A stretch of DNA of 64,000 bases from a phage, in the sequence record PZ242158.1, one strand, 5' to 3'. A program made the translations under genes and the position numbers. Shown here piece after piece: positions 2,340 through 19,213 of the stretch (its first letter is position 1; every line of letters begins with the position of its first letter). The notes beneath the pieces are model-generated. The model was not told the origin of the DNA. It searched no databases and saw nothing but the letters and a program-made list of their open reading frames with translations.

Positions 2340-2765
2340 ATGATCTATGAAATGCCAAAACTGATTCGTGATGATGCCCAAAACGCTCACACCATTATTA
2401 TGGGCAAACGTATGGATATTATTTGTCATAAAGATTTCTGGGAAGGAAGTTACTTCACAGAGTATTTTGGTAAACTGGACAATGGTCTGCTGATCCAGTT
2501 CTACACCGATGCGGAAAACAACATTCACTGGGAGTTCGAAACTGAAGATATCCATAAACTTTTCACCTTCCTCGGTATTAAGGTTGAGGCCAAGTTTGAA
2601 GAAGGTGAGTGCGACGATTGTGGATTCTATGAGGTAACAGATTTCTACCTTCCAAGTGGTAAAAATCTCTACTACGAAAGCCACTTCGGCAACTCAAATA
2701 TGCCACAGGGTTGGGATGAGTTTTTGGAAATTGCAGAAGAGGAGCTGGAATACCGTGATTATTGA
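2340..2765 (+). CDS. hypothetical protein
   Basis: ORF 141 aa, co-directional. Confidence 0.5.
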   Translation: MIYEMPKLIRDDAQNAHTIIMGKRMDIICHKDFWEGSYFTEYFGKLDNGLLIQFYTDAENNIHWEFETEDIHKLFTFLGIKVEAKFEEGECDDCGFYEVTDFYLPSGKNLYYESHFGNSNMPQGWDEFLEIAEEELEYRDY

Positions 2766-3213
2766 TACTGTAAAGGGAGATCTAATCTCCATTTTCAAGA
2801 AAGGGTCAGGCCACATGATCCACGGTTGTAACTGCTTTCACACAATGGGTGCAGGTATAGCGAAAGATATTGCCCGTGAGTTCCCTCAAGCACTGGCAGC
2901 CGACAAAGAGACTGCTTATGGTAATCTAGACAAGCTGGGTATGTTTTCTTGTTGGGAGCATTTTGCCAAGGCCAGGGTCGTATATGGAATCAACCTGTAT
3001 ACCCAGTTCTACCCAGGGCCCAATGCTGAATACTTCTCAATCATGAAAGGTTTTGAGCGAGTCAACGAGGTATTCAAAGGTATGTCATTGCCGTTCTACA
3101 TTCCTAAAATCGGATGCGGTATTGGAGGTCTAAAGTGGAAACATGTAGAAGATGTAATTAATCTTGCAACCACAGATATTGATGTGGTTGTAGTAGAGTA
3201 CAAAAAGTGTTGA
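2755..3213 (+). CDS. macro-domain-like protein (ADP-ribose binding/processing); start placed at GTG overlapping upstream stop, ATG at 2656 is an alternative
   Basis: Motifs GDLISIF, HGCNCFHTMGAGIAKDI, PKIGCGIGGL resemble macro domain signature (GDIT / NAAN..GGGV / P.I..G..G). Confidence 0.5.
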   Translation: MIIDTVKGDLISIFKKGSGHMIHGCNCFHTMGAGIAKDIAREFPQALAADKETAYGNLDKLGMFSCWEHFAKARVVYGINLYTQFYPGPNAEYFSIMKGFERVNEVFKGMSLPFYIPKIGCGIGGLKWKHVEDVINLATTDIDVVVVEYKKC

Positions 3214-4713: not shown

Positions 4714-5039
4714 CAGAGATCATCATTTCAACTGCAGGGTATGTGTTCCTGACAATCATTGCACTGACTATTTTGGTTACAGTGTATGGGTTTGTTATCC
4801 TTCCTATCCTTGAGACATTTAGTTTGTGTCGGTGTTGGAGAAAAGCTTACGGGCCACAACCGTGGAAGGACTGGCCTCACCTGGTGCGCTTAGCGTTCTC
4901 TTATGCTTACGATCACTCTAGCAGTGCATGCATAACCGGATACCACGCCCACAATTGGAGCTGGGAAGGGTTGAGGAAGTGGAATGTTACAAAGACTATA
5001 CCTCTCCGCATGTATAAACCTAAAAACAAAGATAGCTGA
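4710..5039 (+). CDS. hypothetical membrane protein
   Basis: Two hydrophobic segments near N-terminus; ATGA start/stop overlap with upstream gene. Confidence 0.45.
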   Translation: MTEIIISTAGYVFLTIIALTILVTVYGFVILPILETFSLCRCWRKAYGPQPWKDWPHLVRLAFSYAYDHSSSACITGYHAHNWSWEGLRKWNVTKTIPLRMYKPKNKDS

Positions 5040-5340
5040 TACTTGAAAATTTCTGGCATATCAAGTATAAGGGGGATTTCTAAAATGGATTTCCTCCTTT
5101 TTGATATTTCACCAGGCCAGATATTTTAAAATTCTTAGAAAATCAGAAAACGGATAGAAAACTAAAATGGATTTTTCAGGGTAGACACGATGAGCTGAGC
5201 CACTCATCCTATCGTTTGCGTCATATTCCGGGCTACCATTCCAGATTTTCCGCGTATGCTCACACCCTTCTACCAGAACTTTCCCACTCGCCCTTGGCCT
5301 TTTATGGCAATAATCCAGCCACTATCTTGAAGTTGCGGTA

Positions 5341-5540
5341 CAGCTCTCCAAGTACTCGATCTGTTTTTCGTTTCAAAGATTGAATTTTCTGAAAATTTTT
5401 CTCGATAAATTTCTCAGTACTCGATCTGTTTTTCGTTTTCTGAATCGGATTTTCTGGAAATCGTTCCAGCTCTCGACCTGAAATTTTTGGGGACGAAATC
5501 GATTTTTCGTTTTCAGAAATGGATTTTTAAAATTTCTATA
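5341..5540. repeat. imperfect tandem repeat array (three units of about 52-74 bp sharing CAG(C/T)(A/T)CTCGA(T/C)CTG..TTTTTCGTTT)
   Basis: AGTACTCGATCTGTTTTTCGTTT present at 5351 and 5416; related unit at 5467. Confidence 0.6.
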
Positions 5541-5643
5541 TGGGAATATTTTATGGGATACTGTTTTATAGGAAATTGTTACGGAGGGTAATTAGCATGC
5601 TAATTAAATTTATTAAATGCGAGGAGTTCTCATTTAGAATTTT

Positions 5644-5660
5644 GAATGATAATCATTCTC
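5644..5660. promoter_or_regulatory. Fur-box-like palindrome GAATGATAATCATTCTC
   Basis: Core AATGATAATCATT matches the E. coli Fur box core (GATAATGATAATCATTATC). Confidence 0.4.
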
Positions 5661-5773
5661 GTTTGCAGAATAACGGGCAGGCCCGGTGATTGTCTCCCGG
5701 CCCCTGTTGCCCCGGCTTGTTATTATAGTATCACACAGGACAAAGAAAGCAAGGATTTTTTGCATAAATTTTT

Positions 5774-5799
5774 AAATGATAATGATAACCGTTCTCATT
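5774..5799. promoter_or_regulatory. Fur-box-like palindrome AATGATAATGATAACCGTTCTCATT
   Basis: Imperfect palindrome AATGATAAC-C-GTTCTCATT; related copies inside the 434-bp repeats. Confidence 0.35.
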
Positions 5800-6234
5800 T
5801 TATGCAGCGCCCATCCCCGGTGGTTGTCTCCCCCGTCACCGGTGCCTGCCGTCCTTTCGATAGGCATATTGTGCCACCTGGCGGGGCCGCTGTCAACACT
5901 TCTTCAAAAATTTTTTCTAACATAATGCACCAACCGCTGCAACCTGGCGGGGCCAGCCTGGCAGGACCTGACTGACCAGGTAGGAGAGAGTGAAAACTTG
6001 CAAACCTGGTAGGCCTATGCTACAGGGCAGGTAACAATTGAAGAGGAGGTACAAAAATGAAAAGTAATATAATCCCCTGGAAAATGTAGCGATCAACGCC
6101 GCTGAAGTTATCACCCTGGTTGAAAAGGCTATGGCGGGAGCGTTGGAACATAAAGAAGAGTACGAAAAATGATGGTTAACCTGGCAGGGGCGGCGGCTGG
6201 AGAATTCTTCCCAAAAAATAATTCTAACTAATGG

Positions 6235-6262
6235 TTGACAGCTCGGAGAGTTCTGTTATTCT
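6235..6262 (+). promoter_or_regulatory. sigma70-like promoter (TTGACA-16-TATTCT)
   Basis: Consensus -35 with 16-bp spacer upstream of 6316 gene. Confidence 0.45.
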
Positions 6263-6315
6263 TATCCTCGCAAGGTGAACAACACCACACTAATTAACAG
6301 AGAGGATAAAAAATC

Positions 6316-6513
6316 ATGAACGCCTACGGAATTAAAGTACGTCGCAACACTCACCAGGCCGTCACCGATCAAATGGTTTGCCAGGTGGACGTAACCATCA
6401 ACAACGGGCAAGGCCTTTATAAATTCCGTCGCGGTCAGAGCTATACCCGGCAACAGCTTAATCGTTGCGCCCTGACAAAAGGCCAGATCAACCACTGGTT
6501 TAATAAAAAATAA
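6316..6513 (+). CDS. hypothetical small protein
   Basis: AGAGAGGATAAAAAATC-ATG start context. Confidence 0.45.
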   Translation: MNAYGIKVRRNTHQAVTDQMVCQVDVTINNGQGLYKFRRGQSYTRQQLNRCALTKGQINHWFNKK

Positions 6514-6516
6514 GTA

Positions 6517-6545
6517 TTGACATATAGTCTGACACCAAATACACT
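6517..6545 (+). promoter_or_regulatory. sigma70-like promoter (TTGACA-17-TACACT)
   Basis: Consensus -35, 17-bp spacer. Confidence 0.45.
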
Positions 6546-6577
6546 AAAAGCACAAAAGACACTAAGAGGATAAAATC

Positions 6578-6976
6578 ATGAAAACCACTACCTTTAATTT
6601 TGATAATGCGGACTTTTCTTTTTCTGATGTCAAGAACTGCCGCCGTGATCGTGGATTTTACAAGGCTTATAATCTGGTGGGCCTGGACGATGACAATAAT
6701 TTGCACGAAGTAGCTGAGATCCGGTATTATGCCGCCGCCAGTGGTAACACTCACTACTGCGTGTTTTGGATTCACGACAACAAGAACAATAAGTACGGTT
6801 ATACTGGCGGCAAGGCGAGCGGTCACGGTTACGATAAAGCTAACGCAGCACTTGAGAGCGCATTAAATGCTATGGGGATCACTGCCGACGGCTGGATCTA
6901 CGAAGAAGAGTTTTTGTCGGCACTTGCTGACCACCTGGGCTATAAAAAGCACATTGTGACATGCGCCCACGAATAA
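6578..6976 (+). CDS. hypothetical protein
   Basis: AAGAGGATAAAATC-ATG start context. Confidence 0.5.
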   Translation: MKTTTFNFDNADFSFSDVKNCRRDRGFYKAYNLVGLDDDNNLHEVAEIRYYAAASGNTHYCVFWIHDNKNNKYGYTGGKASGHGYDKANAALESALNAMGITADGWIYEEEFLSALADHLGYKKHIVTCAHE

Positions 6977-6982
6977 AAATCA

Positions 6983-7010
6983 TTGACACGCTGCAAAATT
7001 TAAGTAAACT
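6983..7010 (+). promoter_or_regulatory. sigma70-like promoter (TTGACA-16-TAAACT) followed by 5'UTR hairpin GGCGGGAATGTTTCCCGCC
   Basis: Promoter plus perfect stem-loop at about 7021-7039. Confidence 0.45.
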
Positions 7011-7058
7011 AGACACAAAAGGCGGGAATGTTTCCCGCCAACACAAAGGAAAAAGATC

Positions 7059-7463
7059 ATGAATAAGAACGTACGCCGCATCATGAATGAACTGGCAAAC
7101 GATGAAAAAATTATTGACATGCATTTGATCAACATTTGCCGCCGTTGTGTAACATATAACAACCGCGCCGCAAAAGCGCGTGAGATGAACGCAAAAGGCA
7201 CCTTAAAGCCATTCCAGGTGGTGGTAAAGGCCATTAAAGATGTAACTAATACGGCAAACCAGGTACAGGGGAGCACCAACGAGAGTACCAATATTGATCC
7301 GGCTTACATCATGAAACGGATCCGGACCTGCAAGAACAAAGAGCAAGTGTATAATGTCATAGACTGGTTGGATTCTATGGGCGATGTGGTGTACAATAGA
7401 TTCTCTGCAGCTATTGAGATCCAGCTTGACAGGTTAGACGGTAAAGTACTTAAAACTTACTAA
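7059..7463 (+). CDS. hypothetical protein
   Basis: ORF 134 aa with upstream promoter and hairpin. Confidence 0.5.
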   Translation: MNKNVRRIMNELANDEKIIDMHLINICRRCVTYNNRAAKAREMNAKGTLKPFQVVVKAIKDVTNTANQVQGSTNESTNIDPAYIMKRIRTCKNKEQVYNVIDWLDSMGDVVYNRFSAAIEIQLDRLDGKVLKTY

Positions 7464-7474
7464 ATTTATTTTTA

Positions 7475-7510
7475 GATGGCCTTGACTCCAGGGCCATCAA
7501 TAAAGTAAAT
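7475..7510 (+). promoter_or_regulatory. repeated terminator-hairpin/promoter module (GATGGCCTTGACTCCAGGGCCATC hairpin containing TTGACT -35, 17-bp spacer, GTAAAT -10)
   Basis: Near-identical 45-bp element recurs at 8096 and 11836. Confidence 0.45.
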
Positions 7511-7543
7511 TAATCTCAGCTAAGCGAAAAAGGGGGCTTTAAG

Positions 7544-7663
7544 ATGAGCACTACACGCCAATACACAAAGGTAACTATTATCGCCTGCGTTGTCGGTTAC
7601 ATCCTGGCGCAAATGTTAATGAGCAGCGCTAACAGTTTTGCAAAATTTTTCTTAAATTTTTAA
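7544..7663 (+). CDS. small hydrophobic peptide (39 aa)
   Basis: AAGGGGG RBS; hydrophobic core IIACVVGYILAQML; below ORF-track size cutoff. Confidence 0.3.
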   Translation: MSTTRQYTKVTIIACVVGYILAQMLMSSANSFAKFFLNF

Positions 7664-7691
7664 TTGACAAGCTAACTTAGATTGATATACT
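7664..7691 (+). promoter_or_regulatory. sigma70-like promoter (TTGACA-16-TATACT) with downstream hairpin GGGAAAACTTCCC
   Basis: Same architecture as promoter at 9527. Confidence 0.45.
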
Positions 7692-7742
7692 TAAACACGT
7701 AAACGGGAAAACTTCCCAGAGCACACAAAAGGAGAAAACACC

Positions 7743-8084
7743 ATGACTACTATGACCGCCGCAGAAAAAGCTATTCAGATCGCCGCACTGAAAAAACAGA
7801 TCGCAGACCTTGAGAACAAGATCGATAACTTTGAAATCGACGAGGACAAGTACGACGAAAACTATGATGAATGGTTAGACGAGATCTACGGCGAAATTAT
7901 GATCGGAAACATTTCTTTTCTTCCGTCGCGTATCCTCAAGGAGCTAGATCCTATCGCTTACCGCTGCGGATTTAGCGACTACATCGACAGCCTGGATATT
8001 GAGGACGATGAAGAATACCAGGAATTACAGACAGAGTTAGAAGAAGCAAAAGAAGAGCTTGCAGAACTGGAAGAAAACGAGTAA
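7743..8084 (+). CDS. hypothetical acidic coiled-coil protein
   Basis: ORF 113 aa, Glu/Asp-rich. Confidence 0.5.
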   Translation: MTTMTAAEKAIQIAALKKQIADLENKIDNFEIDEDKYDENYDEWLDEIYGEIMIGNISFLPSRILKELDPIAYRCGFSDYIDSLDIEDDEEYQELQTELEEAKEELAELEENE

Positions 8085-8095
8085 GATTATTTTTA

Positions 8096-8140
8096 GATGG
8101 CCTTGACTCCAGGGCCATCAATAAAGTAAACTTTATACTG
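8096..8140 (+). promoter_or_regulatory. second copy of terminator-hairpin/promoter module
   Basis: GATGGCCTTGACTCCAGGGCCATCAATAAAGTAAA repeated. Confidence 0.45.
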
Positions 8141-8173
8141 TTAACACTGAACTAATGCATAGGAGTTAAAACC

Positions 8174-8419
8174 ATGGCAGCACTAATCACCAAATATTAT
8201 GCCCCTACCAACACCAAAAGCGCCCGTATCATGGTAAAAGGCTTCGGACGTAAAAAGGTGTACACCTGGGATTATGCCTTAGACACGGAAGACAACTACA
8301 CCAACGCGATGACCGATTTTATTAATGATCTGAACACGCGGATCTTGACAAATTATAAAATTACCGATATTGCCTATATAGGGGAAGGCGGGATCTGTTT
8401 TGTCGGTATCGTCAAATAA
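8174..8419 (+). CDS. hypothetical protein
   Basis: ATAGGAGTTAAAACC-ATG start context (identical context at 12773). Confidence 0.5.
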   Translation: MAALITKYYAPTNTKSARIMVKGFGRKKVYTWDYALDTEDNYTNAMTDFINDLNTRILTNYKITDIAYIGEGGICFVGIVK

Positions 8420-8494
8420 GCTGTTTTTTCGGTGGTCCTGGTAGCAGGGCCATCTATAAAGATAGTTTATCAATACAATGAAAGGAGAAAGTAC

Positions 8495-8848
8495 ATGATC
8501 AGCGGGGCAAGTTTTATTATTGGCGCTATTGCTACGGCTTTAATTGTAAACAAGATCCAATCTAAAAACGAAAAAGATAGCAACGCCCTTACAGAATACC
8601 CGTTTTGGGTATTCAACGACAATGAAGACTATATTATCAAGTACAAGAATGAGAAGGGCGACCAGGTAACACCGCGACCGATCCCGGCTTACAAGATGCA
8701 AGAAACACTATACCGCCTAAAGGCTGGAGGCGCAAAAATCGTAGACTTTTGGGGATACGATCACACAGATCAGGAAGTTATAAAGCGCCGTATCCGGGCT
8801 ATTCAGGCCAATATTGAAGTTAGCAAGGGGGGAATATATGAAGATTAA
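8495..8848 (+). CDS. hypothetical protein with N-terminal transmembrane segment
   Basis: AAAGGAGAAAGTAC-ATG; hydrophobic N-terminus. Confidence 0.45.
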   Translation: MISGASFIIGAIATALIVNKIQSKNEKDSNALTEYPFWVFNDNEDYIIKYKNEKGDQVTPRPIPAYKMQETLYRLKAGGAKIVDFWGYDHTDQEVIKRRIRAIQANIEVSKGGIYED

Positions 8849-9035
8849 TTTTGAGAAGATTGTAAAGCGATCTCATGCTTCCGAAGAGCTGCCGGAACGC
8901 CGCCAGCGCAACAATAAACTGAATAAGCCAAAAAGATTTGGGAAGATCTGGCGAAATCATTATGATCGCAAATTACCGGGCCTGCTTTTGGAACGTGAAC
9001 GACAGGCGGAACGATACCGCCACAAAGGCAAATAA
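8838..9035 (+). CDS. hypothetical basic small protein
   Basis: Overlaps upstream stop; Arg/Lys-rich. Confidence 0.35.
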   Translation: MKINFEKIVKRSHASEELPERRQRNNKLNKPKRFGKIWRNHYDRKLPGLLLERERQAERYRHKGK

Positions 9036-9043
9036 CAACCAAC

Positions 9044-9070
9044 GCCCCGCCATTGTGCGGGGCTTTTTAT
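9044..9070 (+). terminator. rho-independent terminator (GCCCCGC-loop-GCGGGGC + T-tract)
   Basis: GC-rich hairpin followed by TTTTTATTT. Confidence 0.6.
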
Positions 9071-9276
9071 TTCTATCCTACGAATAGCGCCCCCGGTTGG
9101 CCCTGTAAGCGCCAAAAAGGCCCCACCTATGCAATCGCCCCCCTTTAACCTGAAAACATCGCTTAGGGCCGTTTTATGGCGTTAAAAATATCATTGACAG
9201 TGATTTTATTTAAAGCTTGACATCTTAAACAGGTTAGCTATACTAACCACATCAAAGAGAGAAAGGAGTAAACGCC

Positions 9277-9537
9277 ATGCGTAAATTAAAAAATTTTGAT
9301 AAAGTTGATGTTGTCCTGAATAATTTTTACTACTGCAACAACAAGGCCATTTGGTGGCGTGATAGTTCCACCGATAAAGTTAAAGCTCGCTTTCTCCAAG
9401 GGCACTGGCAAGGCCGTCCAGTGATTAAAATACTGGGGCAACTGGTAGCGTTTAAAAATTGCCGCCGTGTTGATGACGTTGAAGAGATCTTGAACATTTT
9501 ACGCCACAATAATTTAAAAAATAGTGTTGACAAGTAA
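9277..9537 (+). CDS. hypothetical protein
   Basis: ORF 86 aa. Confidence 0.5.
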   Translation: MRKLKNFDKVDVVLNNFYYCNNKAIWWRDSSTDKVKARFLQGHWQGRPVIKILGQLVAFKNCRRVDDVEEILNILRHNNLKNSVDK

Positions 9538-9554
9538 ATCTCGATAAGTATACT
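9527..9554 (+). promoter_or_regulatory. sigma70-like promoter (TTGACA-16-TATACT) plus 5'UTR hairpin GGCGGGAAAACTTCCCGCC
   Basis: Consensus elements; hairpin at about 9565-9583. Confidence 0.45.
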
Positions 9555-9611
9555 TAAACACACAGGCGGGAAAACTTCCCGCCACTAACAAAGAAAATAG
9601 GAGAAAATATC

Positions 9612-10235
9612 ATGACCACCGTTAACATTACCACAGGTTACAATTTATCTTTCGACGTGCTGACCGACGAACAAAAAGAAAAAGCTATTGAAATGGTCCG
9701 CGAAAGAGAAGAACACAGCGGGGATAATTTTTTTGCAGAAAGTGTAATTGAACACTATAAAGAATATGTCTTTCCAGAGTACGGCCTTGAAGATACCGAA
9801 GTACGTTGGTCCGGCTTTTGGTGTCAAGGCGATGGCGCGTCAATCAGTGCTGAAAACGTGGATTTAGAAAAATTCTTGCGTAAAGTAAAGGCCCTGACCA
9901 AGTTCCGATCAATTCGTCACTTGTTCGGCACAATGCACGATGGCGAGTTATCAGCCAGTGTTGAACGTATCCCGTTTAGCCATTATCATCACGAAAACAC
10001 AATAGGAGGGTGCATCGATACTAATTGGCTAGACCTGACCACCAAGCAAGAGGACAAAGTTGAAGAGCTGGAAGAGCTGATCACCGAGACGGTACGGGAG
10101 CTATCCCGCAAGGTTTACGTAGACCTGGAGGAGGCCTATCTTGAACAGTTTACTACCGAAAACCTGATCGGCCTTATTGAAGCCAATGATTGGCGGTTTG
10201 ATGTGGATGAATATGGGGAGATGAGTTTTTCATAA
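9612..10235 (+). CDS. hypothetical protein
   Basis: ORF 207 aa. Confidence 0.55.
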   Translation: MTTVNITTGYNLSFDVLTDEQKEKAIEMVREREEHSGDNFFAESVIEHYKEYVFPEYGLEDTEVRWSGFWCQGDGASISAENVDLEKFLRKVKALTKFRSIRHLFGTMHDGELSASVERIPFSHYHHENTIGGCIDTNWLDLTTKQEDKVEELEELITETVRELSRKVYVDLEEAYLEQFTTENLIGLIEANDWRFDVDEYGEMSFS

Positions 10236-10325
10236 ATAAAGTGTTGCAATAATCTAAAAACCTGCTATATTAAAAACTCAAGGGGCGAGATGACTTGCCC
10301 CCCACAAAACAAAGAGGAAAACATC

Positions 10326-10706
10326 ATGAAAAACACTACTAAAGCTATTGACACCGTTATGTTTAACCTGGTTACATTCCGTGAAGATATGAAAGATCTT
10401 CCACGTGAAACAGTGTGCGACCATATCGAAAACTATCGCAAACTAATCAAAGAGTTGCCTTTAAAACGTGACCAGTACGCGGCTAACGCTATGCTTAACG
10501 CCATGATCAAAAAGATGATCCAGTGTGATTTAACTCTGGCCTATGATTATGCAGGCGGTCGTTTTGCAGTATACAATCAGCCCGTGCCCGGTATGAGCAC
10601 CACCGAAGAATTGCACGCGTTAAATCTGAAACAAGATGTATGGGATAACATGCCCCGCGTGGTGGTGTGGGCAGAAAGCGGAAAGATTTACGGCGATAAT
10701 TTTTAA
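10326..10706 (+). CDS. hypothetical protein
   Basis: CAAAGAGGAAAACATC-ATG. Confidence 0.5.
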   Translation: MKNTTKAIDTVMFNLVTFREDMKDLPRETVCDHIENYRKLIKELPLKRDQYAANAMLNAMIKKMIQCDLTLAYDYAGGRFAVYNQPVPGMSTTEELHALNLKQDVWDNMPRVVVWAESGKIYGDNF

Positions 10707-10770
10707 TCAGGTAACAGGCGGCATATTTGCCGCCTTATTGTTAAACAGAACTGCAAAAGAGGTACATAGA

Positions 10771-11142
10771 ATGGAATTTATTATTTTGGCTGTAGTAGTT
10801 GCCTTGTTCAACGCCTGGATCGCTGGCAAGATGGGTAGATCCGCTTTTTTATGGTTTATTATATCTATTTTCCTGGGGGTGGTTGCAACTATTGTACTTG
10901 TTATCCTTGCAATTGTTGACAAGGGGAATAATAGAAAGGGTAAAGTATTTTCAGACCTGTACGACGCTCAAACATTTGTCAACGCCTACTACAGCGATCT
11001 TCCAGTCTCCCTACGTTGCAGCCTTGCACAACAGGTTTTCGATGAAGCTAAAACCAGAGATCACGCCCATGAGATTTGTTTAACTGAGGCGGATCGCCTA
11101 TTTGAGAGGAATAGAAAATATGTGGACCAGCCGTTTAAATAA
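10771..11142 (+). CDS. hypothetical membrane protein (two predicted TM helices)
   Basis: Hydrophobic N-terminal half. Confidence 0.45.
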   Translation: MEFIILAVVVALFNAWIAGKMGRSAFLWFIISIFLGVVATIVLVILAIVDKGNNRKGKVFSDLYDAQTFVNAYYSDLPVSLRCSLAQQVFDEAKTRDHAHEICLTEADRLFERNRKYVDQPFK

Positions 11143-11361
11143 TGCCACGTTAATTAACCCCTTTAGTGAAGATTTGAAGCCAGCCGCCTGGCGGGATGGA
11201 TTCAATAACGAAAGCTTTATTTTCAGGCCTGATCTTAAGGAATTTTATAACAATGGATCGAACAACGACAGAGATAATTTTTCTTGTAATGTGCGTGGTG
11301 ATAATACTCCTGGGAGCCATTGCAAACCACGTCACTGCTAACAGGAGGAAAGGGGGAGACG

Positions 11362-11481
11362 ATGACACCCAAGGATAAGCCCCGCACCGATAAGGCGCGC
11401 CGTGTTATGGTATGGCTTGAGATCATCGCCCTTGAAATATTGTTAGGCGTAGGGATGTATTTTATCGCTGTAAGTAATTGA
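11362..11481 (+). CDS. small hydrophobic peptide (39 aa)
   Basis: AGGAGGAAAGGGGGAG RBS; C-terminal TM-like segment; followed by terminator-like hairpin. Confidence 0.3.
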   Translation: MTPKDKPRTDKARRVMVWLEIIALEILLGVGMYFIAVSN

Positions 11482-11622
11482 TAACGGCCCCGATCCCTGG
11501 GGCCTAACTTTTCAAATTTTTTTTCTCCCTGAGTGTTGCAATCCGATCCAGAATATGGATAATAACAATCAACGGGGAGACACTCCCCACCGCATAGACA
11601 AAGTTCCAAAAGGAGAAACAAA

Positions 11623-11823
11623 ATGAGCAACAATATCCGCGTTATTAACTTCAAAAAAGAAGAAAAAATTGCCGTGCTGATTGACGGTCAAGAAATCTTT
11701 AAAGGTGATTATGAAGATCATCAAACGGCGATTAGTATCACTCGCGTGATTGGTTACCATAATTTTTACCCTCAAGGCGCTGAGGCAGCAGTAAAACTAA
11801 TTAAAGAGATTGTAGGCCTGTAA
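11623..11823 (+). CDS. hypothetical small protein
   Basis: AAAAGGAGAAACAAA-ATG. Confidence 0.5.
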   Translation: MSNNIRVINFKKEEKIAVLIDGQEIFKGDYEDHQTAISITRVIGYHNFYPQGAEAAVKLIKEIVGL

Positions 11824-11835
11824 AATTTATTTTTA

Positions 11836-11872
11836 GATGGCCTTGACTCCAGGGCCATCAATAAAGTAAATT
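11836..11872 (+). promoter_or_regulatory. third copy of terminator-hairpin/promoter module
   Basis: GATGGCCTTGACTCCAGGGCCATCAATAAAGTAAAT. Confidence 0.45.
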
Positions 11873-11914
11873 TAAACCCTGTTAAAATAATCAGTGCAAA
11901 AAGGAGTAATGATC

Positions 11915-12214
11915 ATGTTTATCCAGGCTAATAATCTTTATTTCTTTGATGGTCAGATCGTAGACGGCGTGGAGGTGGAAATCACCGGGTGCCCTGGCGG
12001 TCAGGTTATGACTTTTCGGAATAATGCCTTTGATGATTCTCATATCGTTATGAGAATGGAAGTTAGTAAGCTGGATGACAAGAAAACACTCATTGATTAT
12101 TCCGTGAAAGATCATCCAGACTACCACATGATCTATGGTGATTTGTGCATTGTTGACCGTGACAAGGTGGGCGGCATTGTGATCGCTATTGTGAACGATG
12201 TTTTCTCAAACTAA
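11915..12214 (+). CDS. hypothetical protein
   Basis: AAAAGGAGTAATGATC-ATG. Confidence 0.5.
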   Translation: MFIQANNLYFFDGQIVDGVEVEITGCPGGQVMTFRNNAFDDSHIVMRMEVSKLDDKKTLIDYSVKDHPDYHMIYGDLCIVDRDKVGGIVIAIVNDVFSN

Positions 12215-12231
12215 TTTCAGCAGGTGATTTT

Positions 12232-12582
12232 ATGAAAGTAAAACTATATTACCTTAATGAGCTTAACCCCCTTGCCCAGGTCCGCGCCCTGGCTAATACC
12301 TTGATTTGTGAGAAATCTGTATATTGTGTTGAGCTTAACTCCATGCGTGAACGTCTCAAAGGTGGTTACTTTGACATCCATGCTGCAATCAACGGCCTGA
12401 ATATGGAATTTATCCGCTTACGTAACAGCCGCCAGAATCTGGCAAGAATGGAACAAGATCCGGCCCACCTTCGTAAGCTGGTTATTGAAAATCATCTAAT
12501 GTTTAATGCCGATGGTGATTATTACCATTTTCACCGTAAACGCTGGTACCGTAGCGGCAATATAGGAAAGAATGCAAAATAA
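12232..12582 (+). CDS. hypothetical protein
   Basis: ORF 116 aa followed by two hairpins (12586-12651). Confidence 0.5.
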   Translation: MKVKLYYLNELNPLAQVRALANTLICEKSVYCVELNSMRERLKGGYFDIHAAINGLNMEFIRLRNSRQNLARMEQDPAHLRKLVIENHLMFNADGDYYHFHRKRWYRSGNIGKNAK

Positions 12583-12788
12583 GGCCCCTGGCAGGGCCTG
12601 CAGCGATATAATCACATAAAGGCTATGCGGTTGCATAGCCTTTATTATTTTGGCGTTACAGCGGCCCCCAAGGCGCTTAAAAAATTTTTAAAGAAGTACT
12701 TGCATCAAGTCCTACAATATGGATAATAAAGGGTGTCGGGGGGCGGTGAGGCCTCCAATCATTAACCGGATAGATAGGAGTTAAAACC

Positions 12789-13073
12789 ATGGCTATTGTT
12801 ACCGTTGGCGATGTAGTAGAAATGGAAGCCAAATACTTAAAAGCTGGTATGCATATCATACGGAATGATCAAGAATTGTTATTAACCATGGTTGAATATA
12901 ATCCCGGTCAGGATTATCCAAGCATTGACTACTTTTTCCAGTATGTTGATGAAGAATTAAAAGAGGATGAGGCTTATCAGGGTGAATTTTGTAATTTCTT
13001 TTGCCCTGATGAGGTTGTAAAAGTTATCTATCAACCTGGCGTACCTTTCCCGCTGCACGCTATCAACAAATAA
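12789..13073 (+). CDS. hypothetical acidic protein
   Basis: ATAGGAGTTAAAACC-ATG. Confidence 0.5.
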   Translation: MAIVTVGDVVEMEAKYLKAGMHIIRNDQELLLTMVEYNPGQDYPSIDYFFQYVDEELKEDEAYQGEFCNFFCPDEVVKVIYQPGVPFPLHAINK

Positions 13074-13128
13074 ACCTGGCGGGGCCGAAAAGGCCCCCAA
13101 TTATGAAAATAAAGAGAGGCAAATCATC

Positions 13129-13362
13129 ATGATGGAACAAATTAAACGCGCCGAGGCTATTAATGGCAACGTGATCTATTTTGTCAGCAAAAACGAAAAA
13201 GGCGTACCCTATGCGGCGGTAATAGTACAGCCTGACGGCGATTATTGGTGTACTGTGTACGGCGCTTATTCTTTTGGGCGTCCAGTGCATGATAAAATTT
13301 TGAAAGTAGCGAACCCTACCGGGAAAAATATCACAGCAGAAAAATTTTTTGAAAATAGTTGA
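13129..13362 (+). CDS. hypothetical small protein
   Basis: AAAGAGAGGCAAATCATC-ATG. Confidence 0.5.
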   Translation: MMEQIKRAEAINGNVIYFVSKNEKGVPYAAVIVQPDGDYWCTVYGAYSFGRPVHDKILKVANPTGKNITAEKFFENS

Positions 13363-13433
13363 CATGACCATATAAGACTGTAGTATATAAATCAAAGGGG
13401 CAAGCCCCACCAACCACAAAGAGGATAAAAATC

Positions 13434-13613
13434 ATGGCTATTATTGCAAAGACTGAGATCGTAGGCTTGGATTCTATTCTCCTCGCATATGAGGAAGCTA
13501 TAGAAATGTATGTGGTTTCCTATGGTGAGTATATCCGTGAATATAAATCTATTGATCTGGCTTTTGAATGTTATATTCGCCAGGTTAATAAAGCGTACGA
13601 TGATTATCGTTAA
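13434..13613 (+). CDS. hypothetical small protein (59 aa)
   Basis: TTGACA-16-TAGTAT promoter and CAAAGAGGATAAAAATC-ATG. Confidence 0.4.
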   Translation: MAIIAKTEIVGLDSILLAYEEAIEMYVVSYGEYIREYKSIDLAFECYIRQVNKAYDDYR

Positions 13614-13703
13614 AATAGTTTGAAAACAAACAACCATCTTACAAAGCATAATACATAAGGCGGTGGAATGGTCCGCCACCTGGAACAAGAAGAGGAAAAC
13701 AAA

Positions 13704-13808
13704 ATGAAACAGAAATTAATTGATGCGGTGATCCTGGTTATTGCCCTGGGTATTGGCCTGATTGCAACCATGGCTAATGTGATCTTGTCTTCCAACGGTA
13801 TCGGGTGA
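13704..13808 (+). CDS. small hydrophobic peptide (34 aa)
   Basis: AAGAGGAAAACAAA-ATG; single TM-like segment. Confidence 0.3.
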   Translation: MKQKLIDAVILVIALGIGLIATMANVILSSNGIG

Positions 13809-13817
13809 GGTTGGCAA

Positions 13818-14033
13818 ATGATCACTAACAAAACAGGCAAAACGGAATTTTTACGCAACTTACAGATCGGCAAGCCTGAGATCTGGTATTGCACTAAAAC
13901 ACCACGTGACGAAATGAAAGACTTCACCGCCACGCTGCAACGGGTAAAGATATCCATCACGCAGAAAAAGGCCTTGATAGTGGTGGAAGGTGAGATCCCT
14001 CAAACCGTTGTTATAGTTGAGCGTACAGCATAG
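13818..14033 (+). CDS. hypothetical small protein
   Basis: ORF 71 aa. Confidence 0.45.
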   Translation: MITNKTGKTEFLRNLQIGKPEIWYCTKTPRDEMKDFTATLQRVKISITQKKALIVVEGEIPQTVVIVERTA

Positions 14034-14124
14034 TTTAATTTATACCGATACCCGAAAATTAACCAACAAAGCATAAACAGGCGGTTACCGCCGCCTTAAA
14101 CGTAGCAGAAAGAGGATAGACACA

Positions 14125-14409
14125 ATGAAAAAGATGATCGCAGTGGTTGCCCTGGTTGTTGGACTTAATGCGCCTGTAATGGCTAAAGAGCTGGCAAAAG
14201 AGGTTGATCTAACGGATATCCATGCCGTCAATCAAATCGGGGTTACTTATCGCTTATGCCTTGCCGCTAAAACTTTTAATGACGGCACAACAGAGTACTA
14301 CGGATTCGAGGGTATCCGGTGCGGTGAGCTTGCTCGCGACCTTAAGGAAGATCCAGACCTGGAAGATCTGCCCATCACCGTAAACGGTAAAGCTTACGTA
14401 AACCGTTAA
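14125..14409 (+). CDS. hypothetical secreted protein (N-terminal signal peptide)
   Basis: MKKMIAVVALVVGLNAPVMA signal-like N-terminus. Confidence 0.5.
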   Translation: MKKMIAVVALVVGLNAPVMAKELAKEVDLTDIHAVNQIGVTYRLCLAAKTFNDGTTEYYGFEGIRCGELARDLKEDPDLEDLPITVNGKAYVNR

Positions 14410-14411
14410 CC

Positions 14412-14546
14412 ATGAGAAAGATAATCATCACCTTGGGGATTGTGGCGGGATCGCTGGCGCTCTTTCTCCTTATGGTTAGGTATGTGCTGATCGGTATTGT
14501 CCTGGTAGTCAGTGATCTATTGGAAACGGTTGGCACCTTGTTTTAA
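14412..14546 (+). CDS. small hydrophobic peptide (44 aa)
   Basis: Two hydrophobic stretches; immediately follows upstream stop. Confidence 0.3.
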   Translation: MRKIIITLGIVAGSLALFLLMVRYVLIGIVLVVSDLLETVGTLF

Positions 14547-14558
14547 AGAGCGGTAAAA

Positions 14559-14750
14559 ATGAATATCGAACAAGTTAGAAAGGTATTGGCGGTACTGCGT
14601 TATCATAATCATAGAAAGGTCATAGACGATCCTGATTATGTCGATTCAAGCCTGGAAGGGGATACACTACAAGCCATAAGTAATATGCAAGAATTGCTAA
14701 AGCGCATGACAGAGAAAAACCGACCGGACTACATAGGCGAAAAAATATAA
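14559..14750 (+). CDS. hypothetical small protein
   Basis: ORF 63 aa; terminator-like hairpin downstream. Confidence 0.45.
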   Translation: MNIEQVRKVLAVLRYHNHRKVIDDPDYVDSSLEGDTLQAISNMQELLKRMTEKNRPDYIGEKI

Positions 14751-14963
14751 TCCTTATAAACTACAAAACAGGGCTTGCAATGGTCCTGTTTTTTTGTTAT
14801 ACTTGTTTCACGGCAGGCACCTGGCGACGGGGGGAGACAATCACCGGGTGTGCCTGCTATATAAAAACTATAAAAACCGTTGACATCTGCCAGGTGCTGG
14901 GGTAGCATTTATCTCGAAGGGGGCAAAAGCGCCCACACAACAACCGGAAGAGAGGAAAACGCC

Positions 14964-17191: not shown

Positions 17192-17625
17192 TCCCCTCTT
17201 TGTCAAGTGCTGCATGAAAAAATTTACAAGCTGGTATGGTAGCATTTTTGCGGCCTTGTTTACATTCAGGAGTGTATGTATAATCCTTGTTGTGTGGGCG
17301 TTTATACGTCTGGACGGTCAGAAGTCTGCAGGTTAATATCTAATCTATTGGCTGCTAACTATATCCCACACAAATGATAAGAAATATAATTGTTATATGC
17401 GTAAACTGTAACTCATGTTATCAATCCCTGTATGTATCGCCAGTGGTGCGCATAATGGGTATTATGTTAAATTGCCCGTAATGATAACAGTTCTCACAAT
17501 GATAGGTATTCTCATTCATCCACACAAAATAGGTTGCAAATGTTGTGCCACTGTGTGAACGGCCTGGCCTATTAATTTCTCTCACTGCCTCGATATTTGA
17601 GAATTGTTATAAGAATGAGAAGTAT
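17192..17625. repeat. 434-bp direct repeat, copy 1
   Basis: Identical to 17752-18185 by visual comparison. Confidence 0.85.
17256..17284 (+). promoter_or_regulatory. sigma70-like promoter inside repeat copy 1 (TTGTTT-17-TATAAT)
   Basis: Perfect -10 hexamer with 17-bp spacer; no ORF downstream. Confidence 0.4.
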
Positions 17626-17751: not shown

Positions 17752-18185
17752 TCCCCTCTTTGTCAAGTGCTGCATGAAAAAATTTACAAGCTGGTATGGT
17801 AGCATTTTTGCGGCCTTGTTTACATTCAGGAGTGTATGTATAATCCTTGTTGTGTGGGCGTTTATACGTCTGGACGGTCAGAAGTCTGCAGGTTAATATC
17901 TAATCTATTGGCTGCTAACTATATCCCACACAAATGATAAGAAATATAATTGTTATATGCGTAAACTGTAACTCATGTTATCAATCCCTGTATGTATCGC
18001 CAGTGGTGCGCATAATGGGTATTATGTTAAATTGCCCGTAATGATAACAGTTCTCACAATGATAGGTATTCTCATTCATCCACACAAAATAGGTTGCAAA
18101 TGTTGTGCCACTGTGTGAACGGCCTGGCCTATTAATTTCTCTCACTGCCTCGATATTTGAGAATTGTTATAAGAATGAGAAGTAT
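17752..18185. repeat. 434-bp direct repeat, copy 2
   Basis: Identical to copy 1; 126-bp unique spacer between copies. Confidence 0.85.
17816..17844 (+). promoter_or_regulatory. sigma70-like promoter inside repeat copy 2 (TTGTTT-17-TATAAT)
   Basis: Same as copy 1. Confidence 0.4.
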
Positions 18186-19213
18186 TCCCATTCCGTCCGC
18201 CTGGCAGCGCTCCTGTAGGTCCTGCAAGGACTCTAGCTTTCAGCTAGACCCTTCGGGCCTCCCTACAGGTCAGGTCAAAATCGTGGTAGAATTGGGCCTA
18301 TTCAGATATTTCTGGCTGACTCTTCAGGTCTGTGTGGGAAAAGCCAACCTCTCCGGCGGGGCAGGGGGAGGTCAATTAAAAAATTTACGTGGTGTATGAA
18401 GCGCTCTTCAGGTAAGGCAGGTATTATGGGATGAAACCCTCTTCAGGCAATGATATTTGTGGGTGTGATATTTGCTGGAAAGCCAGATATGACGGGACTC
18501 CCGGCGGGGCAGGGGTAGTACAGACAGGGAAAATATGAGAATGTAGTTGGGGAAATTGATCAGACAGGTAGAGTATGGAATATGTTACAAGTATGTTAAA
18601 TATGGAGGTTGAATATCTGTAGGATTTGTGTGTAAAATCAAAGACTTAAGGGGTGTTGTGATATTTTCTATAAATAATTCAAGTTTAATAGGTGATATTT
18701 GTCTCTATCCGCTTTGTGTGGTAAACAGATTCAGATGAGATTGGTTTACAAGTGTATACATAATATACAAATTAAAGATACAAGAAACCCCCCATCCCCC
18801 TTCGGCTACCATTCACCTTTTCCTCTGACTGGTACTTAAACACTTATTCAGACTCTTCAGGTTATCACCCATATATCATATGGCAGTGACTGGTGTCCTC
18901 CGGCCCCTCTTTCGTCACCCGTCCGCTTCGCCATGCTAATGCCATAGCCAATGGTTCGGTTGTTCACCCTGTTCACTCAGGTGTATCTCCATACCCCTTC
19001 AAACCGAAGAGAACAGAAAACCCGAATTACTCGGTAAAAGAAAAGAGAAGAACTTAATTTTATCAGGATAGGCAAGAATGTCAAGGCATGACTGCTCACT
19101 AAACAAGCAAACAGTCATGTGTGGGAGGTAAGTGATTGTGGTGGTGGGAAATTTAGTTGAAAGATGTGTTATAGGTGCGCTTCCAGCACTTTAGCCGGGC
19201 AGCTAATTGTGTG

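Follow-up and report, generated by a model that had tools for sequence, protein, structure and literature searches.

Copies of a repeat around the early gene cassette

The window (the whole stretch of DNA analysed, 64 kb) belongs to a Vequintavirus, an rV5-like E. coli phage with 98.5% identity to rV5_ev156. It contains a cassette of about 30 small early genes, with copies A and B of a repeated element (duplicated in this genus) at the upstream border and copy C at the downstream border (Table 1). Copy B (CCCCGGTGGTTGTCTCCCCCGTCACCGGTGCCTGCCGT, 5815-5852, plus strand) has its reverse-complement match in copy C (CGGCAGGCACCTGGCGACGGGGGGAGACAATCACCGGGT, 14811-14849), and copy A is a partial direct copy at 5680-5704. 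The inverted copies of some 40 bp that the initial annotation described at 5.8 and 14.8 kb are real, a few bases away from where it had placed them, and so is the direct copy it had put at 5687-5705. The repeat search gave the inverted pairs I3 (37 nt, 78%) and I5 (29 nt, 86%). All three copies share a 16-nt core, CCGGTG(A/G)TTGTCTCCC, at 5683 (+), 5817 (+) and 14847 (-). Searching for CCGGTGATTGTCTCCC with up to three mismatches we found 3 matches in the 64 kb, 0.20 being expected, and none of 100 dinucleotide shuffles had three; the recurrence of the core in the window is non-random. A three-way alignment of the copies revealed an invariant block, CCCGGTG[A/G]TTGTCTCCC, within about 150 bp of looser homology, and the invariant core of the module amounts to 20 bp. 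The best explanation is that the copies are paralogues of one ~150-bp non-coding regulatory module, and they look like inverted repeats because two paralogues face each other.

This module is conserved in the Vequintavirinae, in Phapecoctavirus and in Aeromonas phages (Plateaulakevirus). In 11 genomes of six or seven genera we found the unit at the two positions, separated by 7-10.6 kb, and in all 11 the relative orientation was constant, the A-type copy running with the cassette genes and the C-type copy against them. A low-complexity hairpin artefact is contradicted by the presence of the unit at the same two places in other phage genera. Besides, the module is phage-specific. Rfam, the literature, host homologues and conserved ORFs provided no match, it was not found in 5,426 E. 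coli genomes, and 185,579 species genomes gave no matches above chance. The bare 16-mer is present in more than 100 unrelated prophage contigs, inside a structural gene (in-frame LPVIVSQ) and with flanks devoid of similarity, which is a coincidence; as the annotation would have counted a wide occurrence elsewhere against its reading, this is a caveat.

It could be argued that the copies lie within real protein-coding genes and that the repeat is a shared peptide motif. An ORF of 109 aa (5646-5975) covers A and B and is a hypothetical protein in the records of rV5 (gp193) and WalterGehring, and in some records an ORF of 29-41 aa is annotated over C. However, the ATG of the former falls inside the Fur box and has no ribosome-binding site, copy C is on the opposite strand, and many curated records carry no annotation there. 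The frame ends after 6, 7, 13, 26, 26 and 35 codons in nepoznato, KB57, L043, R7, GAP31 and an Aeromonas phage, respectively. Since the frame over A and B closes so early in six lineages with the DNA still conserved, the module is non-coding, and a peptide motif is hardly credible.

Table 1. Repeat copies and predicted control elements in the 64-kb window
Feature	Position	Strand	Remarks
P1(A) -35-like hexamer TTGAAT	5642-5647	+	Overlaps left edge of Fur box A
Fur box A, AATGATAATCATTCTCGTT	5645-5663 (classical 19-mer register 5642-5660)		1 mismatch to 9-1-9 consensus
P1(A) -10-like hexamer CAGAAT	5666-5671	+	Ends 13 nt before GGTG
Copy A, conserved block AACGGGCAGG and core CCCGGTGATTGTCTCCCGG	5672-5704	+	Would make up ~30 nt at the start of the P1 RNA
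P2(A), predicted sigma-70-type promoter TTGCTT-16-TGA-TACTAT	5725-5752	-	Directed left, out of the cassette
Fur box B, GATAATGATAACCGTTCTC (5778-5796) or AATGATAACCGTTCTCATT (9-1-9 register, 5781-5799)	5778-5799
Copy B, GCAGCGCCCATCC, core CCGGTGGTTGTCTCCC and 3' arm CCGTCACCGGTGCCTGCCGT	5806-5852	+	Hairpin CCGGTGG/TCACCGG
P2(B), predicted, TTGACA-17-(TG)CACAAT	5868-5896	-	Directed left through copy B; 10/12 with TG extension
Hairpin closing the cassette	14765-14792		Intrinsic terminator for +, followed by T7; loop contains P2(C) -35
P2(C), predicted, TTGCAA-17-(TGT)TATACT	14775-14803	+	Directed right, out of the cassette
Copy C, AGCAGGCAC, core CCCGGTGATTGTCTCCCCCC and GTCGCCAGGTGCCTGCCGT	14811-14857	read on -	Stable hairpin
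Possible P1(C) -10, TATATA/TTATAT	14858-14866	-	Score 6.0; poor -35, no Fur box in this genus
Fur-type box pair CGTAATGATAACAGTTCTC; AATGATAGGTATTCTCATT	17477-17516		Large non-coding region
Repeat of the box pair at 17477-17516	18037-18076		Within 440-bp tandem duplication
Fur-type box AATGAGAAGTATTCCCATT	18174-18192		Also kept in rV5

Fur-type boxes, predicted facing promoters and folding

The boxes of the module have the consensus AATGA[G/T]AAT-C-ATTCTCATT. The Fur-box consensus derived from Fur-regulated genes of Xanthomonas, which was aligned there with the Bacillus, Shewanella and (shifted) E. coli consensus sequences, is letter for letter the same (PMC1790865), and GATAATGAGAATCATTATT and TGTAATGATAACCATTCTC are among the published iron boxes of enterobacteria (PMC10665472). 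We scored about 128,000 positions with a matrix made of eight sites, all of them published iron boxes. Box B was the top site of the window (21.5 bits, 16/19 against the E. coli consensus) and box A the second best (18.4 bits). The training sites themselves scored 16.3-26.3, the mean best score of the shuffles was 14.3, and one of 200 shuffles reached 21.6 bits, a result that we have counted against the Fur reading. Fur-type 19-mers occupied 5 loci of the window versus 0.07 expected. In every genus these boxes cluster ahead of A, at C and, beyond C, in the non-coding region, with one to four per module and a spacing of 29 bp in the arrays, and the distance from box to core is exactly -38 in 21 of the 32 copies. 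Judging by these matches, the A and B modules carry canonical Fur-type operators. Copy C of this window has lost its Fur box, and the core is therefore maintained even in the absence of a Fur box in cis, a point that we also count against the Fur reading. We have found no Fur homologue encoded by the phages of this group; conceivably, a non-homologous phage protein with Fur-like specificity could read the boxes.

The predicted promoter P1, TTGAAT-18-CAGAAT, is identical in the A-type copies of Vequinta-, Seuna-, Certre- and Henunavirus, and its geometry is the same in most A-type copies, the core beginning 13 nt past the -10. At the homologous place at C, other genera have a Fur box and CTGAAT/CGGAAT. 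On the opposite strand the best-scoring promoter, P2, is located 26-29 nt from the core in 28 of the 32 copies, and two P2 promoters were found independently by a generic promoter scan. The predicted start of P2(C) is near A14810, and alignment A1 shows no variation in the reverse complement of its -10 (ATAAC). P1 is predicted to be a moderately weak sigma-70 promoter and P2 a stronger one, often with an extended -10; the promoters, their start sites and the binding of Fur are all predictions.

The initial annotation had also considered shared operators or structured RNAs at the cassette edges. The operator idea comes close to what was found, with Fur-type boxes and predicted promoters located there; a structured RNA is not established, as the A/C-type copies gave no consensus secondary structure on either strand and folding energy favoured neither strand (15 vs 16 copies). 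Fold prediction did produce a stable hairpin at copy C (minus strand, -23.1 kcal/mol and z = -4.0; plus strand, -24.2 kcal/mol and z = -3.1). The stem of the hairpin that closes the cassette covaries between genera (CAGG/CCTG, GGGG/CCCC, CGGG/CCCG), and on the minus strand it has a weaker UUUUGU tail. Downstream of C, the hairpin on the P1 strand lacks a U-tail in Certre-, Mydo- and Henunavirus, and a discrete, terminated sRNA is therefore not a general feature. Within the window the core had no convincing base-pairing target.

Alternative roles of the module

As had been proposed in the annotation, the copies could be crossover sites of a site-specific inversion or cassette exchange by which the 9-kb early block is flipped or swapped. 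Short inverted repeats bracket a multi-kb segment also in Hin/Gin/Cin and the shufflons, and the gene content of the block varies somewhat among relatives (1-6 aligned pieces). However, synthetic junctions were found in none of the matching phage records (0/118 for BxC, 0/123 for AxC), both junction halves staying at separate places in every record, and no inverted orientation appeared in about 120 related genomes. The orientation is fixed in the 11 genomes of six or seven genera, and the cassette genes need the plus orientation to be co-directional with their own promoters. Sizeable ORFs in or near the cassette contained no recombinase domain and no recombinase is annotated in the regions fetched from relatives. 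Unlike the repeats of the known invertible systems, the conserved unit holds promoters and operators, superfluous for an inversion site. The inversion reading is already largely refuted and we regard it as very improbable.

Inverted paralogous elements, promoter-proximal and at the two sides of a gene block, are known as nutL/nutR in lambda and putL/putR in HK022. The core might be a cis RNA of this type, by which the polymerase is modified to pass the intrinsic terminators of the early region. The short paralogues stand just downstream of promoters on both sides of the block, B and C have hairpins, and terminators are abundant in the cassette (23 found vs 11 expected). Their orientation to the genes does not fit, however, as P1 at C would run antisense through the entire cassette and no genes lie in front of P2 at A. 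We found no conserved two-stem structure, no match in Rfam, no likeness to boxA/boxB on reading the sequence and no N-like protein, and such a role seems improbable. The architecture, with a Fur box over the spacer between the -35 and -10 of a sigma-70 promoter and a short stretch of non-coding DNA behind, is that of Fur-repressed promoters and sRNAs such as RyhB, PrrF and NrrF, and arrays of adjacent boxes like those of the module are found at strongly regulated iron promoters. The unit might then specify a stand-alone, trans-acting, Fur-repressed sRNA of the Hfq type, a phage analogue of RyhB with a 5' seed against host mRNAs, P2 being irrelevant. The conserved segment would fall at the 5' end of this RNA, its UCUCC motif could pair with Shine-Dalgarno sequences, and an A-rich stretch and a UUUUGU hairpin come after copy C in Vequinta-, Seuna- and Phapecoctavirus. 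But the A-rich stretch is the complement of the T-tail of the gene-strand terminator and of the P2 -10, several genera have no U-tail, and no clean terminator was found, the A-type copies included. Unlike the known iron sRNAs, the module has no sequence similarity to RyhB or any Rfam family, is carried by virulent phages and not by a chromosome, depends on Fur by prediction, faces a convergent promoter and showed no conserved fold. We give little weight to an sRNA of this kind.

It is also possible, although unlikely, that the core acts at the level of DNA, being bound by a phage or host protein for a purpose other than making RNA, with the promoters incidental or serving only to open the DNA. 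Examples would be a P2-driven replication origin or R-loop priming element, an insulator or boundary, or one portion of an array that titrates Fur. The core does not vary in its primary sequence and the pairing potential around it drifts, with neither a consensus fold nor strand bias. Copy A sits in a gene-free region of 1.2 kb with iteron-like direct repeats (D2), further Fur boxes lie in a 3-kb non-coding region that adjoins the terminal repeat in Hena1, and KB57 and Hena1 have annotated 'replication initiation protein' genes at a distance of 4-5 kb from the A copy. The predicted P2 transcripts are G-rich in several copies. Nevertheless, the G-run is absent from class-2 copies, two or three cores per genome, 9 kb apart, are unlike iterons, and we identified no protein that might bind the core. 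The simplest explanation for the constant distance between the core and both promoters is that transcription across the core matters. As in RNA I/RNA II of ColE1, a short P1 transcript would fully complement the 5' end of the longer P2 transcript, but we have seen no sign of P2 RNA priming replication, of a nearby origin or of a three-stem-loop structure.

Iron-responsive convergent promoters as the favored reading

We propose, with a probability of about 0.5, that the copies are paralogous, iron/Fur-responsive units of convergent promoters that would give rise to short non-coding RNAs, sense and antisense, at the borders of the cassette. Each unit would comprise one to four canonical Fur boxes; P1, with the last box as its spacer; the invariant RRCRGGCA...CCGGTG(W)TTGTCTCC directly after the P1 -10, which would form the ~30 nt at the 5' end of the P1 RNA; and P2, which would lie past the core on the other strand and fire back over it. 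Since A/B and C stand at opposite borders in opposite orientation, P1 would always point into the cassette and P2 always out of it. In an iron-replete cell, host Fe-Fur on the boxes would keep P1 silent and may hinder P2 read-through too. Once Fur is released P1 would fire, and the activity of both promoters would result in short overlapping sense and antisense RNAs, or in mutual interference. Transcription at the cassette borders would then follow the iron status of the host.

Transcriptional interference between a strong promoter and a weak, repressor-controlled one operates in the switches of coliphages 186 and P2. The geometry predicted here is similar, a stronger constitutive promoter being face to face with a weaker operator-controlled one, with predicted start sites ~40 bp apart (an estimate from the 13-nt and 26-29-nt offsets). 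Unlike in those switches, neither promoter at copy A directly serves genes, the operator is a host Fur box and not a phage repressor site, and the module occurs twice, inverted, with interference as a proposed outcome. Among temperate phages, stx1 of the Shiga-toxin phages is Fur-regulated cargo. The same is true of sitABCD in lambda-like phages (PMC6969025). There, a host Fur box on phage DNA makes expression follow host iron status, as predicted for the module. Those are protein-coding morons on prophages, whereas the boxes described here have no ORF after them, are conserved between genera and belong to non-coding, core control regions of phages that are strictly lytic. This suggests that a large group of virulent phages may read the iron status of the host.

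Module copies on both sides of the early-gene cassette

The window belongs to a Vequintavirus: over 11 kb it shares 98.5% identity with Escherichia phage rV5_ev156, and 239 phage records match it. Between 5.9 and 14.8 kb it carries about 30 small genes on the plus strand, each with sigma-70 promoters, together with many intrinsic terminators; this block is the early region of rV5 (PMC3606486). The initial annotation had described an inverted element of about 40 bp at the edges of this cassette and a partial direct copy beside it. We found all three sequences (copies A, B and C in the table below), with the position of copy B 3-5 nt off, and the repeat search of the window returned two inverted pairs, I3 (37 nt, 78%) and I5 (29 nt, 86%). 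Together with a scan for the core, the 16-nt sequence common to the copies, it confirmed short inverted repeats at both cassette ends. The alignment of the three copies contains a single invariant block, CCCGGTG[A/G]TTGTCTCCC, inside about 150 bp of weaker homology. The core itself, CCGGTGATTGTCTCCC, occurs exactly three times in the 64 kb at up to one mismatch; even at up to three mismatches 0.20 matches are expected, and three were reached in none of 100 shuffles. Copies A and B lie inside a 1.2-kb gene-free stretch ahead of the early-gene block, and copy C follows the block's last terminator and precedes the next promoter. Curated records have over these regions no annotation or short "hypothetical proteins" only.

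Other features were seen in the surroundings. Directly to the left of copy A, within the gene-free stretch, there are three iteron-like direct repeats of about 47 nt (5342-5527, period 65-74 bp, 74-80% identical). Nine of the ten CCAGGTG/CACCTGG sites of the window fall within 4878-14896, several of them within promoter spacers and the copy C 3' arm; over the whole window the motif is not enriched (10 against 6.5 expected). Upstream of the cassette, 2656-3213 (+) codes for a 185-aa Macro-domain protein (E = 1e-5), possibly an ADP-ribose-removing counter-defence enzyme. In rV5, gp139 (locus L122, 20271-20588) is a homologue of ribosome hibernation factors (Pfam Ribosomal_S30AE, E = 2e-12), a homology known from earlier reports on that phage.

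Coordinates of the module copies and of associated elements in the window and in related loci (L numbers)
Feature	Location	Strand	Remarks
Copy A	Window 5680-5704	+	Read from window sequence
Copy B	Window 5815-5852	+	Read from window sequence
Copy C	Window 14811-14849	-	Read from window sequence, on minus strand
B-type element, ~100 nt	L123 213-310; L125 3260-3360; L128 4078-4180		Counterparts in L124, L126, L127, L129, L153, L248-L253
ORF opposite to cassette strand	L128 4225-4416	-	
ORF opposite to cassette strand	L127 15221-15406	+	
ORF opposite to cassette strand	L124 11173-11439	+	
ORF opposite to cassette strand	L253 2168-2434	-	
50-nt repeat family	Window 7462-7511, 8083-8132, 8418-8467, 11823-11872		Hairpin terminator, -35 TTGACT in loop, -10 directly downstream

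Conservation and orientation of the module in related phages

BLAST searches with both regions gave matches in Vequintavirinae and Phapecoctavirus, and in Aeromonas phages to part of the unit. In the distant matches the aligned part was precisely a palindrome plus the core. When the copies are set side by side, the module starts with one to four 19-bp palindromes, a -10-like GAAT hexamer and RRCRGGCA, and goes on with CCGGTG(W)TTGTCTCC, a variable segment that in many cases can pair back, ATAAC and a hairpin. The reading frame annotated as a gene over A/B stops within 6-35 codons in six lineages in spite of the conserved DNA, and for this reason we consider the module non-coding. A protein-coding gene was rejected, since the frame is not conserved among the relatives, and this reading is essentially excluded; the "hypothetical proteins" annotated over the elements, rV5 gp193 among them, very probably do not represent genes. 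A small peptide following the SD-like GGGAGA on the strand of the predicted promoter P2 (see below) was also discarded, as the sequences of the three window copies and of the copy in the related phage R7 do not conserve it.

We searched for the module outside of this group of phages. The unit around copy C had no BLAST match in 5,426 complete E. coli genomes and has therefore no host homologue. A gapped pattern of box plus core, run on 185,579 species (one genome each), gave 45 matches against about 54 expected by chance, and the single real one was a mis-binned phage contig fitting the unit profile. The 4-kb contig JAEZZU010000352.1, from a 'Proteobacteria' MAG, has a full A-type plus B-type module (that is, counterparts of copies A and B; nhmmer E = 6e-32) and is evidently a fragment of a Phapecoctavirus-like phage binned into a bacterial MAG. 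This gapped pattern worked where a scan with the 14-mer GAATAGCGGGCAGG had not, the matches of the latter being apparently mostly chance, with few loci fitting the unit profile. An exact 16-mer scan of viral contigs gave more than 100 coincidental matches and true relatives at only 5 loci. In IMG/VR prophage contigs (L002-L121) the exact core lies in frame (LPVIVSQ) within a very common structural gene of enterobacterial prophages, a pure coincidence that is misleading for any k-mer-based search. The module is real, non-random, phage-specific and non-coding.

In the genera other than that of the window, the A-type copy precedes a highly conserved, roughly 100-nt element (GAACTACCGGCGATCCACCTTCC...GTTAGCCCCGCCTTTTCGCCGTGGGGTGGCG), the counterpart of copy B, that belongs to no Rfam family. 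Directly after the A/B modules these genera also have a small conserved ORF opposite to the cassette strand (Pfam DUF7170/phrog_4653, or phrog_19316). The ORF found at the equivalent place in the window (5917-6114, minus strand) matches nothing.

Inverted repeats flanking a gene block could be recombination sites for inversion or cassette exchange, as had been proposed at the start. We built synthetic junctions for recombination between B and C and between A and C and searched them against 50,697 phage records; the joined sequence was found in 0 of 118 half-matching records for the former and 0 of 123 for the latter. Eleven genomes of six or seven genera were compared (rV5, WalterGehring, Salmonella R7, GAP31, nepoznato, ZCKP1, CR8, KaOmega, POP18, KB57 and Hena1), and the segment was inverted in none of them. 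In each of them the A-type copy shares the strand of the genes, and the C-type copy, 7-10.6 kb away, takes the opposite one. Pfam showed neither a recombinase nor a transposase domain in the ten longest ORFs between 1 and 16 kb, and no recombinase is annotated in the regions compared from rV5 or WalterGehring. Given the lack of recombinant junctions, the fixed orientation and the lack of recombinase domains in these larger ORFs, a site-specific inversion system was rejected, and a role as recombination site is essentially excluded. Terminal inverted repeats of a transposon or MITE were rejected as well, because both positions are constant in all genera and these ORFs contain no transposase domain; a mobile element is also contradicted by the absence of the unit from E. 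coli genomes and, beyond chance, from other genomes. The module is conserved on either side of the early cassette, its copies always inverted relative to each other, with no inversion.

Fur-type boxes and predicted face-to-face promoters

The consensus of the phage palindrome, AATGA(G/T)AAT-C-ATTCTCATT, agrees in every letter with the one published for Fur boxes of Xanthomonas campestris, which was derived from Fur-regulated genes and aligned with the Bacillus and Shewanella consensus and, after a 3-bp shift, with the E. coli 19-mer (PMC1790865). Lists of enterobacterial iron boxes contain GATAATGAGAATCATTATT and TGTAATGATAACCATTCTC (PMC10665472). Ahead of copy B, the box agrees with the classical E. 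coli consensus GATAATGATAATCATTATC at 16 of 19 positions. We built a Fur weight matrix from eight published boxes only (training sites score 16.3-26.3), and its top two sites in the window were the B box (21.5 bits) and the A box (18.4 bits); in 200 shuffles the best score averaged 14.3, with a maximum of 21.6. The 19-mer was found at five window loci against 0.07 expected, namely A, B and three in the non-coding region at 16.2-19.2 kb. The discriminating tests were these two, the 19-mer and the matrix; the 7-1-7 pattern TGATAATNATTATCA at up to two mismatches was not discriminating (1 match, 0.54 expected). In every genus, boxes repeated in tandem every 29 bp exactly stand before A, and others are clustered past C. 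Several genera have a box at C itself; copy C of the window has none. No phage of the group encodes a Fur homologue, which makes host Fur the obvious candidate binder, and we infer that it binds the boxes. The neighbouring rV5 'transcriptional regulator' gp153 was not Fur-like by Pfam.

A perfect tandem duplication of about 440 bp (17192-17625 and 17752-18185, period 560 bp) lies within a 3-kb gene-free region, and each of its copies contains pairs of Fur-type boxes. Since Erwinia phage Hena1 has an annotated direct terminal repeat 2.4 kb beyond its C copy, the duplicated region may hold the physical genome end, or it may be a repeat-junction artefact. A further match to the Fur matrix (16.5 bits, GATAATGACACTGATTTTC) was seen at 62331, inside a six-gene tRNA cluster (62085-62894, +).

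Two promoters are predicted to face each other across the core. The weaker, P1, reads TTGAAT-18-CAGAAT and is identical in most A-type copies; its 18-bp spacer is taken up by the box, and 13 nt separate the end of its -10 from GGTG. At copy C of the window the -35 of P1 is poor and there is no such overlap of box and promoter. The predicted P2, on the opposite strand, is nearer to consensus, with TTG(C/A)nn, a spacer of 16-18 nt, often TGn, and TATnnT. In 28 of 32 copies, both types taken together, the top-scoring promoter on that strand lay 26-29 nt from the core, and a generic promoter scan independently picked up P2 at B and at C. The ATAAC that does not vary in the alignment is the P2 -10 in reverse complement, and at copy C the P2 -35 falls within the loop of the last terminator of the cassette. 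P1 upstream and P2 downstream of the core would thus converge. In consequence, the predicted P1 faces into the cassette at either border and P2 faces outwards. From the promoter offsets we estimate the predicted starts to be about 40 bp apart, so that the two transcripts would overlap over the core. Canonical Fur-box sequences are present, together with conserved promoter-like hexamers that stand at fixed spacing on both strands. The design of a promoter embedded in a terminator also appears elsewhere in this phage, in the 50-nt repeat family D1, two copies of which are 100% identical.

Possible roles of the module

The best reading of these patterns is a convergent-promoter unit responsive to iron through Fur that produces short sense and antisense non-coding RNAs, to which we assign a probability of about 0.5. 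The Fur-controlled transcript would have the invariant core as its 5' part; Fur would bind, P1 and P2 would fire, and their products or their collision would regulate something. The initial annotation had also proposed shared structured-RNA elements, and folding did not establish this. Copy C gives a stable hairpin (z about -4), as does its complement strand. Neither strand is favoured in folding energy over all copies, and RNAalifold, run on MAFFT alignments of the C-type copies, of the A-type copies and of a mixture, returned no consensus structure. For the B-type counterpart of other genera a two-hairpin consensus is predicted, with U.G-to-C-G changes and one compensatory pair; as the opposite strand also folds, this covariation is a hint and not proof.

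These data bear on two alternatives that keep the Fur boxes and explain the core at the RNA level. A stand-alone, trans-acting sRNA of the RyhB kind, which would be a special case, fits the predicted promoter and the hairpin followed by UUUUGU that three genera have on the P1 strand. However, the U-tail is missing in three other genera, there is no consensus fold, and the A-rich linker and terminator that make copy C look like an Hfq-type sRNA are accounted for on the other strand by the T-tail of the cassette terminator and by P2; we regard this sRNA as improbable. Rfam reached its gathering threshold in the window with tRNAs only, a search of the loci themselves relaxed to E values up to 5 gave nothing relevant (RyhB-like families included), and sites complementary to the core within the window did not exceed the shuffle level. 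The core might instead be an antitermination element of the nut/put type, as the hairpins of single copies would allow, but it has no conserved structure, and the orientation of the genes does not fit at A (for P2) nor at C (for P1); we regard this as about equally improbable. A role of the core at the DNA level, again with the Fur boxes kept, in origin priming, as a boundary or in a titration array, is unlikely too, if less remote.

Returning to the iron-responsive unit, its widest version is that a whole clade of virulent myoviruses of enterobacteria and Aeromonas is wired into the host Fur regulon, with the arrays of boxes at the cassette borders and near the genome end gating short sense and antisense RNAs according to host iron status. 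We put this forward tentatively, as possible and rather doubtful. If it were so, the RNAs could also gate early-gene expression or the priming of replication, and the arrays, present at hundreds of genome copies, could titrate Fur and derepress host iron uptake.

That bacteria have promoters under Fur control and small RNAs responding to iron is textbook knowledge, and Fur boxes are already known ahead of cargo genes of temperate phages. In the paper behind the closest genomes, Fur boxes are mentioned only for sitABCD on temperate lambda phages (PMC6969025). We found in the literature no description of the element, of small RNAs of Vequintavirinae or of virulent phage genomes with Fur boxes, nor any report of canonical Fur boxes as a conserved, central feature of non-coding control regions in strictly virulent phages. 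The Fur box and the convergent promoters are each familiar; what appears to be new is that a large clade of lytic phages has conserved their use in its core control regions. One direct consequence is the correction of annotations, as proteins have been called over these elements (rV5 gp193, for example).

If true, the link to the host Fur regulon would be a previously unrecognised route for a lytic phage to sense and manipulate the physiology of its host. The rV5-like and phAPEC8-like phages are among the coliphages with the broadest host range and are candidates for therapy and biocontrol. Infant gut samples were the source of the rV5_ev isolates (PMC6969025). Should the early programme or the replication of rV5-like and phAPEC8-like phages depend on host iron status, their performance would be affected where iron is limited, as in gut, urine and blood, and a delta-fur host or iron chelators would provide a simple experimental handle on them.
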